From Methanosarcinales archaeon (GTDB lineage Archaea; Halobacteriota; Syntropharchaeia; Alkanophagales; Methanospirareceae): 30,428 nucleotides of DNA. Numbering within the stretch: position 1 is the first letter of the stretch; each line of letters begins with the position of its first letter. A program made the position numbers and the translations under genes. Under the pieces are notes generated by a model. It saw only the letters and a program-made list of their open reading frames with translations. It made no database searches and was not told the origin of the DNA. Positions 17,082 to 20,000 of the stretch are shown one piece after another. Location: assembly GCA_025464345.1 (NCBI GenBank), contig JAODGP010000023.1, positions 1 through 30,428 of the forward strand. The letters run 5' to 3'.

Positions 17082-20000
17082 ATGAGGACGAAGAGAATAA
17101 AGGCGATAAAATTCGGACTGTTATCACCGAAGGAGATAAGGAAGATGAGTGCTGCGAAGGTGATAACAGCGGACACTTACGGTGAGGATGGCTTTCCAAT
17201 AGAGACGGGACTGGTGAATCAGCGGCTGGGTGTTATTGATCCCGGGCTGAGGTGTAAGACCTGTGGGGGTCGTATGGGTGAATGTCCGGGGCATTTTGGT
17301 CATATCGAGCTCGCTGCACCGGTCATACATGTGGGATATGCAAAACTGATCCATAAGATACTGAGTGCCACGTGTCGCAGGTGTGGGAGGTTATTACTGA
17401 GCGAGCCGGCGAAGCAGGAGTATCTGGCGAAGATAGAAGAGCAGAAGGAGAAGCAGGCAGATATAAACGAGGTGGTGAAACAGGTCTTCAAGGAGGCGTC
17501 GAAGAACGAGGTGTGCATGTACTGCGGCGATTATTTCAGTATAGATAGCGAGGGTCTGGAGGAGGACCTGGATAAGAGCAGTGTGAGTAGCGAGTTGCGT
17601 GAAAGGATAGAGGACAGAGGCTTCTCTGTATCCAAGAATGCGATACTGCATAGGGAGATAGATCCAGAGCGGCTGTTCCGCTGGGGTGACGTGCCGGGCA
17701 GGGATAATAAGCAGCTGATAGAGTTTCTTGTCCGTGATTTTGAACTCACGTGGGTGAAGAAAGCGAAGATCAGTAAGAAGGATGATAATACGGTGGTGAT
17801 CTCAGCGGGTGCTAAAACGTTGGAGCTTTCGCTCAGTTCGAGGAGAGATTGTGTGAGACTGAATTTTGAGGGTGGGCGTAGTTACGAGTTACCGGTGAAG
17901 AAAGAGGGTATGGCTCTCTTCGTTTACAGCTACCGGTGGGTGATAACTGACACTGATAAGGTTTACATATTGAAGAGGGGCTGGGACAAACTGCTTATAT
18001 ACTGCGGAGAGCGACAGAAGCGGATAAAATACGAGAAACCGACCACCTACAAGGAGATAGAAGAGGATGGGCGAGAGCGGAGATTGATGCCAACGGATGT
18101 GCGTGAGCGGCTTGAGCGGATACCGGATGAAGATGTTGAGGTTCTCGGAATGGATCCCGCGAATGCGAGACCCGAATGGATGGTTCTAACAGTCCTGCCA
18201 GTGCCTCCGGTTACCGCGCGACCTTCGATCACACTGGAGAGCGGGCAGCGGAGTGAGGATGACCTGACGCATAAGCTGGTGGATATAATCAGGATAAACC
18301 AGCGATTTATGGAGAACAGGGATGCAGGTGCGCCACAACTGATAATAGAGGACCTCTGGGAGCTTCTTCAGTACCATGTCAGCACATACTTTGATAATGA
18401 GATACAGGGTATACCACCAGCCAGGCACCGGAGTGGTAGACCTCTGAAGACGATGGCACAGCGGTTGAAAGGCAAGGAGGGGCGATTCAGGGGTTCGCTA
18501 TCCGGTAAACGTGTGAATTTCTCGGCACGAACTGTGATATCACCTGACCCGGACATAGGTATAGACGAGGTGGGTGTGCCGGTAGATGTGGCGAAAGAAC
18601 TGACGATCACCGTTAATGTGACGGAGCGGAATTTAGAAGCGATGAGGGAGCTTGTGCGTAATGGCAAAAACCATCCAGGTGCGAACTACGCGATAAGACC
18701 GGACGGCAGGAGATTGAAATTGATGGAGAGCAATTACGAGACTCTCGCTTCGGAATTGGACATAGGATGGAAGGTGGAACGGCACCTGATTGATGGTGAC
18801 ATCGTTCTCTTTAACAGGCAGCCATCTCTGCACAGATTGAGCATAATGGCACATTATGTAAGGGTGATGCCGGGCAGGACTTTCAGGTTGAATCCGGCAG
18901 TGTGCCCACCGTATAATGCCGATTATGACGGTGATGAGATGAACCTGCACGTCTTGCAGACAGAGGAGGCGCGTGCGGAGGCGAAGATTCTGATGGAGGT
19001 ACAGCGTAATATCATATCACCCAGATTCGGCAGACCGATAGTCGGTGGTATACACGATTACATCACAGGTCTGTTCATGCTCACGTGGGGCGATAAGAGA
19101 TTCAGCAAGGAAGAGGCACTGGACATATTGAGGAACATAGACTTTGATGAGCTGGGGGAGCCCGCGGGAATCGGTGAGGATGGACAGCCTTACTGGACCG
19201 GGAAGCAGATATTCAGCGTGATTTTGCCTGAGGGGTTGAATCAGGAGTTCCGTGGCAAGGTGTGCAGGAAATGCACGGAGCAGGGCTTGATATGCAGGAA
19301 GGAAGACTGCCCCAATGAAGCGTACGTGCATATAAAGAATGGCAGGCTGATAAGTGGTGTGATAGATGAAATGGCAATAGGCTCCTTTAAAGGTATGATA
19401 ATAGACCGGATATATCGTAAACTGGGCGATAGTACCGCCAAGGAGTTTATAAGCAAAGCTTCTCGACTCGCAATCAATTATATACTCCTTGCTGGGTTCA
19501 GTTTCGGGATAAGTGATGAGGATATACCGGAGGAGGGTAAGGAGCAGATACGGGACGAGGTAATAAAGGAAGCGGAGGAGAAGGTGAAGCGGCTGATAAT
19601 GGCATACGAAGCGGAGGAACTGGAGGCGTTACCGGGCAGGACGCTGGAGGAGACGCTGGAACTGCTGATAATGCAGGAACTCGGTCGTGCGAGGGACGAA
19701 GCGGGCGAAATAGCGGGCAGATATCTGGGCATAGAGAACCCAGGTGTGCTCATGGCGAGATCGGGCGCTCGTGGCTCCATACTCAATTTAACGCAGATGG
19801 CAGCCTGTGTGGGTCAGCAATCAGTGAGAGGCGAGCGGATAATGAGGGGCTATCATGGCAGGACATTACCGCATTTCAAACCCGGTGATCGGAGTGCAGA
19901 TGCTCGTGGCTTCGTTCGGTCTTCATTCAAGGACGGGCTATCTCCAACTGAATATTTCTTCCATGCCATGGGCGGGCGAGAAGCGCTGGTGGACACCGCA

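Follow-up and report, generated by a model that had tools for sequence, protein, structure and literature searches.

Relics of two probable nested transposons in the clamp head of an archaeal RNA polymerase

The stretch of DNA analysed here (contig JAODGP010000023.1 of GenBank assembly GCA_025464345.1, 30,428 nucleotides, hereafter the window) comes from a Methanosarcinales archaeon of the family Methanospirareceae that is represented by a 1.17-Mb bin, 90% complete. It carries rpoA', the gene for RNA polymerase subunit A', within a standard rpoB-rpoA'-rpoA''-L30e-NusA-S12-S7 operon, and Rpb1 domains 1-5 in order, together with the rpoB-rpoA'-rpoA'' arrangement, identify the product as the archaeal subunit A'. 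A first-pass annotation, made from the letters of the sequence and without database searches, had described this protein as 1042 aa long with an interrupted clamp-head stretch, and the open reading frame (ORF), its translation and the Pfam matches bear this out. The motif C145-M-Y-C148-G149 is followed by 157 residues without a Pfam match and then by I306-Y307-C308-G309, which leaves 160 extra residues between C-M-Y-C-G and Y-C-G. This insert, its anatomy and its probable origin are the subject of the present text. The features of the gene that frame it are the following:

17082..20210, + strand: rpoA' gene, RNA polymerase subunit A', 1042 aa (ORF and translation; Pfam Rpb1 domains 1-5; neighbouring genes)
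17373..17384, + strand: codons of C98-x-x-C101, first of the cysteine pairs at the zinc site in the clamp head (translation; invariant in 30 relatives)
17514..17528, + strand: codons of C145-M-Y-C148-G149, the intact C-x-x-C-G knuckle upstream of the insertion (both cysteines kept in all 13 insert-bearing RpoA')

The C98-x-x-C101 pair is presumed to be a zinc ligand pair on the model of Rpb1/Rpo1 structures. The insert itself is bordered by a direct repeat (17517-17530 and 17997-18010) that is 12/14 identical and whose copies are, as had been claimed, 480 nt apart. The string TACTGCGGNGA has two sites in the whole window, both at the insert flanks, against 0.08 expected. Three differences separate the flank copies; all lie at third codon positions, as expected from the earlier description of flanks that differ only at wobble positions, but they are not all silent, two of them altering the residue (M/I, D/E).

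RpoA' was inspected in 40 related genomes, 30 of which were aligned. The whole insert is present in eight other genomes, namely every one of the six others in the window's genus and two from a second genus (g7); misassembly was considered and ruled out, the same insert being found in 9 separately assembled genomes. Only ~70 residues are found at the same place (site 2) in four genomes of three further genera, and a related 70-residue segment occupies a second clamp-head site (site 1) in those four genomes and in one genome of a fifth genus. In the remaining relatives V-C-M-Y-C-G-E is uninterrupted and RpoA' measures ~880-905 aa, which agrees with the first-pass statement that the archaeal protein is usually shorter and contiguous. 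Because the partial inserts of ~70 residues sit at exactly the same place, the insert must be modular, with a module A of ~70 aa at the junction that is split by a module B of 86-88 aa; removal of B from the insert yields the module A consensus plus three junction residues. The single inserted element of the first-pass annotation is thus replaced, on alignment with relatives, by two nested ones. All three junction cysteines are kept in 13/13 insert-bearing RpoA' (five genera). The site-2 copies, again 13/13, fall in one clade (support 0.87), and the site-2 insertion therefore happened once.

At site 1, module A directly follows the equivalent of C98-x-x-C101-G-R-V-L-L (loci L011 in genome G009, L012 in G021, L013 in G018, L014 in G007 and L022 in G023). 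Four genomes have two presumably transposon-derived domains in one clamp head; the window's RpoA' is without the site-1 insertion.

In the window, the composite insert resolves into these parts:

17523..17530, + strand: 8-bp target-site duplication of element A, left copy, TGCGGCGA (matches the right copy at 7/8 positions; family-wide register)
17531..17668, + strand: 5' segment of element A, residues ~150-196, with T-TAT-TTC-AGT as its 5' inverted repeat, now decayed (module A profile matched over positions 4-46; uninterrupted A at the same site in four other genomes)
17661-17668, + strand: last 8 nt of this 5' segment, GATCCAGA, the target entered by element B
17669..17927, + strand: element B, 259 nt, residues 197-282, nested in A, inverted repeats decayed (profile match, E 3.6e-31)
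17928..17935, + strand: expected right target-site duplication of B, AGCTACCG (placed by the family register and by the three extra junction residues after removal of B)
17936..18002, + strand: 3' segment of element A, residues ~286-307, ending in CTT-ATA-TAC, the decayed 3' inverted repeat (profile match to module A positions 47-70)
18003..18010, + strand: 8-bp duplication of element A, right copy, TGCGGAGA, encoding C308-G309 and the start of E310 (C308 and G309 invariant or nearly so in all relatives)

The left duplication of element A has the register of its family, with 8 nt that end one base before the Tyr codon. The duplicated TGCGGNGA copies a Cys-Gly of the zinc knuckle (17523-17530, 18003-18010). 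What had been read as a duplicated YCG is therefore an 8-bp duplication of Cys-Gly-(Asp/Glu) that does not include the Tyr codon TAC; the repeated Tyr is a coincidence, because the element's own last codon is Tyr and a Tyr also precedes the cysteine in the host protein. The lengths add up accordingly: element A totals 138+67 = 205 nt, and 205+8 = 213 nt make 71 codons; for element B, 259+8 = 267 nt make 89 codons; and for the composite, 205+259+8 = 472 nt, with 472+8 = 480 nt or 160 codons. The B copies in RpoA' of the related genus g7 give a full-length DNA-level match to the model of young B copies. With high confidence, we regard the insert as two nested non-autonomous transposons (MITEs, miniature transposable elements with inverted repeats), B within A.

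Both modules recur in unrelated proteins. When the insert was searched against this genome and against archaeal proteins, a check that the first-pass annotation had recommended, the same modules were found in unrelated hosts, so that paralogous copies do exist. Within related genomes, module B occurs in CARDB/DUF11/NosD surface proteins, a pentapeptide-repeat protein (two copies), a T2SSE ATPase and an alanyl-tRNA synthetase (AlaRS). Its profile matches at least 611 proteins in a collection of 5.8 billion, where the hosts include PriL, LonB, CDC48, McrG-containing ORFs, Csm3, helicases, and KAP and STAND NTPases, and where the named sources are Methanophagales, ANME-2c (ANME, anaerobic methanotrophic archaea), Methanosarcinales and Altiarchaeales. 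A scan of species-representative genomes with an 8-row B alignment gave 44 loci from ANME-1, ANME-2, ANME-3, Methanoperedens, Methanosarcinaceae and Methanothrix bins. Module A was found in 58/61 family genomes and in 1854 protein clusters at E<=0.001, with hosts that include KAP NTPases, pentapeptide proteins, a Cache/HAMP phosphatase and an FtsZ-like protein. The window's own genome (G000) has three further module A copies, in AglB, EMC6-arch and an archaeosortase-family membrane protein:

contig C27, 3860-4075, + strand: further module A copy, locus L052
contig C60, 7803-7997, + strand: further module A copy, locus L053
contig C64, 9261-9464, - strand: further module A copy, locus L054

The copy in AglB lies between the core and L1 domains, and its duplication is still 6/8 identical (CTTCACGG / CTTTATGG). 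ANME and Methanosarcinales archaea have young copies in AlaRS, the primase subunit PriL, LonB, AglB, EMC6, NTPases and surface proteins. One of them, a young module B in a loop of AlaRS (G009, L046:3201-3479), is found in that genome only and is missing from 11 orthologues, one of them from the same genus; it is a presence/absence polymorphism in an essential gene. Nesting is not confined to RpoA'. Module A stands inside module A in three proteins (P0204, P0201, P0187), and in a T2SSE-family ATPase (G013, L032:2984-5623, residues ~131-291) A is split by B four residues earlier than at the RpoA' junction, and therefore in an independent nesting event. Together, the T2SSE nesting and the A-in-A cases suggest that the loop of module A is favoured by insertions or tolerates them particularly well.

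Viral contigs of IMG/VR yielded no B relatives with the patterns used. A few module copies lie on short contigs binned as bacteria (L075, WOR-3; L107, Gracilibacteria; P0028, Marinimicrobia; P0139, Poribacteria; P0144, Proteobacteria), which could be mis-binned archaeal contigs or true spread beyond archaea. At locus L043 (G015:C1, ~1272) a B copy sits right at a start codon, with the duplication ATGGAAAC / GTGGAAAC; the product of the host gene accordingly starts M-E-T-Y-L-F-S-W, and a second copy of the original start lies downstream of the element.

Between host genes and genera, B copies show 74-83% identity at the DNA level, compared with 57-75% identity of the encoded protein, with a synonymous divergence (pS) of 0.23-0.47 and a ratio of nonsynonymous to synonymous divergence (pN/pS) of ~0.6. 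For core rpoA' between such genera pS is 0.68-0.72 and dN/dS (the ratio of nonsynonymous to synonymous substitution rates) 0.05-0.08. The lower pS of the B copies and their pN/pS imply that they are far younger than their genomes and evolve almost neutrally. When B copies are aligned with 75-nt flanks, similarity extends from G-TATTTGTTTAGC to AGCTAAACATATAC and the flanks are unrelated. The ends are invariant even at synonymous positions, including rare Leu CTA and Ile ATA codons. In young B copies the 5' end, GTATTTGTTTAGCT, matches the reverse complement of the 3' end at 13/14 positions, and A copies have the same ends. The two families thus share terminal inverted repeats of 13-14 nt (GTATTTGTTTAGC), which explains why modules A and B, internally different, both begin with Y-L-F-S and end with K-L-N-I-Y.

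Duplications of 8 bp accompany these borders. Across 52 distinct B copies the mean is 4.17/8 matches vs 2.29 in shifted controls, and at least 6/8 positions match in 13/52 copies vs 1% of controls, some duplications being perfect; the best register is that immediately flanking a 262-nt element. The 19 distinct A sites give a mean of 3.63 vs 2.10 in the same register. In both families the element length becomes divisible by three once 8 is added (262+8, 208+8), and in every copy the sense frame alone, of the six, is open. Twelve DNA-level B copies were found in one genome and 11 in another, and 11/12 of those in one genome are in frame within ORFs. The copy censuses were partly seeded by protein searches; a DNA-level search of one genome gave the same in-frame set.

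Larger elements with the same kind of ends accompany the small ones. The exact repeat 12-mer has 19, 10 and 7 occurrences in three relatives (<1 expected by calculation), some of which lie in a non-coding ~160-nt element with such ends. Paired ends 1.4 kb apart enclose a 440-aa ORF that matches Pfam DDE_Tnp_IS66 (6e-45) and, weakly, zf-IS66 (9.5e-4, below the Pfam cut-off). In four relatives a second transposase group (~471-aa open frames, elements of 1532-1590 bp, three of them of 1532-1543 bp) has the same ends as the small elements, GTATTTGT(T/A)TAGC, and in a same-genus genome a 1532-bp element at L163:1296-2827 is flanked by a perfect 8-bp duplication, GTAATTTA. The partner elements have a single ORF of 428-472 codons with DDE_Tnp_IS66 matches of E 6e-45, 3e-32 and 1e-34, and the zf-IS66 match is significant in the two elements with exactly matching ends (E down to 6e-9). 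The single ORF, the combination of DDE_Tnp_IS66 with zf-IS66 and the 8-bp direct repeats are those of the ISBst12 group of the IS66 family, single-ORF elements for which an 8-bp direct repeat has been reported in the case of ISDge4 (PMC12898284). Such transposases occur in 30/61 family genomes.

A non-coding repeat of ~160 nt on several contigs of genome G015 (L150-L157) starts with GTATTTGTTTAGC, finishes with GCTATACAAAT-type ends and includes an inverted segment in its interior (ACCACAAGATTACAC...); probably it represents a third MITE family, one without coding capacity, that belongs to the same transposase. Other exact TATTTGTTTAGC matches in G015 were considered as further coding families and rejected, several of them being this non-coding ~160-nt element.

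Taken as a class, the elements have terminal inverted repeats (in young copies), a duplication of fixed length (recognisable in the window for A, not for B), small size, no transposase gene, multiple copies and a matching autonomous element in the lineage, which are the hallmarks of MITEs. The proposal of the first-pass annotation that a mobile, frame-preserving coding element had entered rpoA' with a target-site duplication is upheld by the unrelated hosts, the sharp inverted-repeat borders, the 8-bp duplications and the IS66-family partner. A and B were most likely mobilised in trans by the 1.5-kb single-ORF, ISBst12-like elements of the IS66 family, judging from the shared ends.

The following history would account for the locus. 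An element A of ~205-208 nt would have entered the rpoA' codons just after the C-x-x-C-G zinc knuckle and duplicated the 8-bp target TGCGGNGA; the duplication explains both the complete knuckle upstream and the second Y-C-G-E with which the normal downstream strand resumes. In an ancestor of the window's genus and one related genus, an element B of ~259-262 nt would later have entered a loop of A. The open frame of both families would encode a small alpha/beta domain, and the frame would be kept by a length that, with 8 added, is divisible by three. The RpoA' copies would now be translated and form an appendage on the clamp-head surface that purifying selection maintains. With no such transposase found in the genome and decayed repeats, they are therefore immobile relics. 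As a whole, the reading of the RpoA' insert as nested transposon relics, moved by an IS66-type partner and now translated under purifying selection, is in our judgement well founded and very probably correct.

Predicted structures are compatible with such an appendage. A model of the insert alone is mixed alpha/beta (pLDDT 93.1, pTM 0.84), and in a model of RpoA' residues 1-400 the clamp head and the insert are both well predicted, with strands 150-155 and 303-311 at the borders. In the predicted module domain the first and last strands appear to adjoin, an arrangement that would allow it to plug in at a surface loop, and the insertion is plausibly tolerated through the intact C-x-x-C-G knuckle upstream and the regenerated C-G-E start of the downstream strand. 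Searches for relatives returned no Pfam match, either with the insert or with 21 B copies, no convincing match of the insert in Foldseek against the PDB (best E 0.024, TM 0.25) and no convincing fold relative in a structural scan against 48,161 chains (best Z 5.2); ESM Atlas scores for B and A were weak (0.85-0.86), and a predicted complex of two module B copies scored 0.25 (mark 0.42).

Within RpoA', dN/dS is 0.08-0.14 for A and 0.13-0.35 for B, beside 0.05-0.08 for the core, and we infer that the insert is a translated, constrained appendage of the clamp head. The earlier suggestion that it had been domesticated as a surface domain is supported only as far as purifying selection goes (dN/dS 0.08-0.35). 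A stronger version, that the insert, whatever its origin, is an adaptive, co-opted polymerase domain, for instance one that docks a factor or shields the clamp head from virus-encoded inhibitors, is the likeliest of the alternatives and nevertheless appears doubtful. It can point to a constraint in RpoA' that exceeds that of young copies (pN/pS ~0.6), to the retention of the insert in every genome of two genera and of A in three more, to the three junction cysteines kept in 13/13 sequences and to the frequency of the modules in NTPases of the defence-system kind. A viral inhibitor is moreover known to contact the archaeal clamp head (PMC8448823), so that a protective or docking role of the insert would be conceivable. 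Against this, purifying selection is also expected of any insert that needs to fold inside an essential enzyme, most genera of the family are without the insert, and no partner, ligand or structural relative was found.

That A and B are conventional domains, recruited by ordinary recombination for a useful common function, such as the binding of one shared partner, and without transposition, is improbable. The confident fold predictions, conserved motifs such as W-x-x-V-P-G-x-D, the adaptor-like occurrence in tandem arrays and terminal positions of KAP/STAND NTPases and of pentapeptide, TPR and HEAT proteins, and the purifying selection on the RpoA' copies would all suit domain shuffling. Recombination, however, predicts none of the signs at the DNA level, which for this reason count against it: ends that are inverted repeats and are conserved at synonymous positions, flanking 8-bp duplications in a fixed register, DNA identity above protein identity with pN/pS ~0.6 across genera, and a transposase-bearing element and a non-coding 160-nt element with the same ends. 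Least probable of all is removal of the insert before the protein matures, as an intein or as an RNA intron excised by pairing of the inverted ends, to leave a polymerase of normal size: the ends of a young B element do pair in the predicted RNA fold (z = -3.1) and C308 follows the insert like an intein +1 nucleophile, but the RNA fold of the composite in the window is not unusual (z = -0.84), the insert has Asp150 at its start and Ile-Tyr at its end, just before Cys308, where an intein would have Cys/Ser ... His-Asn, there is no significant match to a Hint, intein, LAGLIDADG or homing-endonuclease family, in line with the lack of intein hallmarks that the first-pass annotation had noted, and the one open frame per copy together with the RpoA' dN/dS of 0.08-0.35 indicates selection on the encoded protein, which is not expected of an intron.

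Several observations weigh against the reading of nested transposon relics. All sequences analysed come from metagenome-assembled genomes (bins), and both transposition itself and translation of the insert are deduced from sequence; mobilisation by an IS66-type element in particular is inferred from identical ends and equal duplication length only. The window's genome, 90% complete, has no such transposase and no excess of the repeat motif. Both inverted-repeat pairs in the window are decayed, and the right duplication of B, AGCTACCG, no longer resembles the left copy and is unrecognisable, so the assignment rests on homology to young copies elsewhere. No clear duplication remains at the AlaRS junction or at site 1 of RpoA' either; these sites and the window's B-in-A junction are presumably old insertions. 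By itself, the flanking repeat does not surpass eight further short repeats that occur by chance within the same 900 nt, and it becomes credible because of its position at the exact insert border, its conservation in the 13 insert-bearing RpoA' of five genera and the family-wide duplication statistics. The site-2 insert is also patchy on the RpoA' tree; to reconcile a single origin with such a spread, one has to assume precise losses, transfer, or discordance between gene tree and species tree.

The closest known parallel is found in the Rickettsia palindromic elements (RPEs), to which the first-pass annotation had already likened the insert, and the likeness holds for the in-frame insertion of a repeated element into unrelated protein genes. 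As far as they are described in a summary (PMC10969869) of the work of Ogata et al. (2000, 2002), RPEs are inserted in frame into many genes; like A and B, they are short repeated mobile DNA found in unrelated, often essential genes, translated and compatible with the fold of the host. The same 2024 review calls it 'conceivable' that proteins of other prokaryotes evolved by a comparable route through MITEs (PMC10969869). The likeness is taken as an analogy, since host domain, size and ends differ, RPEs being ~100-150 bp long and A and B 205-262 nt. Unlike RPEs, the archaeal elements have 13-14 nt inverted repeats, 8-bp duplications and an IS66-family partner, are nested, and encode a confidently predicted alpha/beta domain of 70-88 residues. 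To our knowledge, no transposase, inverted-repeat and duplication signature or autonomous partner is known for RPEs. On the sequence data, what appears new relative to them is the archaeal setting, the length of a folded domain, the defined ends, duplication and partner, the nesting, and the two clamp-head sites that were hit.

MITEs of the ISBst12 group of IS66 elements are similar to A and B in that they share the ends of 1.5-kb DDE_Tnp_IS66/zf-IS66 elements, generate an 8-bp repeat, are small, lack a transposase and occur in multiple copies. Typical prokaryotic MITEs are intergenic and non-coding, whereas A and B have a long open frame, a foldable product and a frame-preserving length and occur almost only inside genes. 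Selfish insertions that preserve the frame of essential or conserved genes are also known in the form of inteins and of in-frame homing elements, the ShiLan domain (PMC11855218) among them. A and B differ from inteins in having no splicing residues, nuclease or Hint/LAGLIDADG match, and apparently moved by cut or copy transposition with target duplication and not by homing. In the clamp head of eukaryotic Rpb1, extra residues are found in the loop between the third and fourth zinc cysteines. Such lineage-specific RNA polymerase insertions resemble the RpoA' insert in lying at the surface, at nearly the same point of the zinc-binding clamp-head tip, with the catalytic core untouched; the RpoA' insert is set apart by being far larger (160 aa, two domains) and by a mechanism that would still be readable in the DNA. 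Literature searches returned no description of A or B elements or of the RpoA' insert in ANME genomes, an absence that is no proof of novelty.

If the reading of nested transposon relics is right, transposons can add domains that are predicted to fold even to essential enzymes. The origin of domains in the middle of proteins can usually not be recovered; here it would be legible in the inverted repeats, the 8-bp duplication, the transposase family and the co-occurrence of young and old copies. The same elements would explain an unannotated domain superfamily of at least ~1,850 protein clusters and would amount to a collection, made by nature, of loop positions where essential proteins accept a domain of 70-90 residues. 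Length anomalies in marker genes of ANME (rpoA', alaS, priL, lon) may likewise be transposon relics that affect alignments and phylogenies. A broader proposal, that ANME and Methanosarcinales archaea hold a whole, hitherto unrecognised class of IS66-mobilised 'domain-encoding MITEs', which persist within genes by coding for a self-folding plug-in domain and by keeping the frame together with their 8-bp duplication, and which serve as a general engine of domain insertion (RNA polymerase, twice in some genera, AlaRS, primase, Lon, AglB and hundreds more), with the RpoA' copy co-opted at the clamp head for a function such as factor docking or protection from inhibitors encoded by viruses, is put forward tentatively, as something we think possible and rather less than probable.

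Two further observations concern RNA polymerase genes. RpoA'' of the window (20207-21553, + strand) is 448 aa long, and its match to Rpb1 domain 5 takes 293 residues to cover 217 profile positions, leaving ~75 extra residues that match neither the A nor the B profile. Two proteins, P0133 (1840 aa) and P0135 (1166 aa), combine Rpb2 domain 6, Rpb1 domain 2 and about two module A copies, and may be fused or run-on rpoB-rpoA' calls from double-insertion relatives, or RpoB copies that carry the module.

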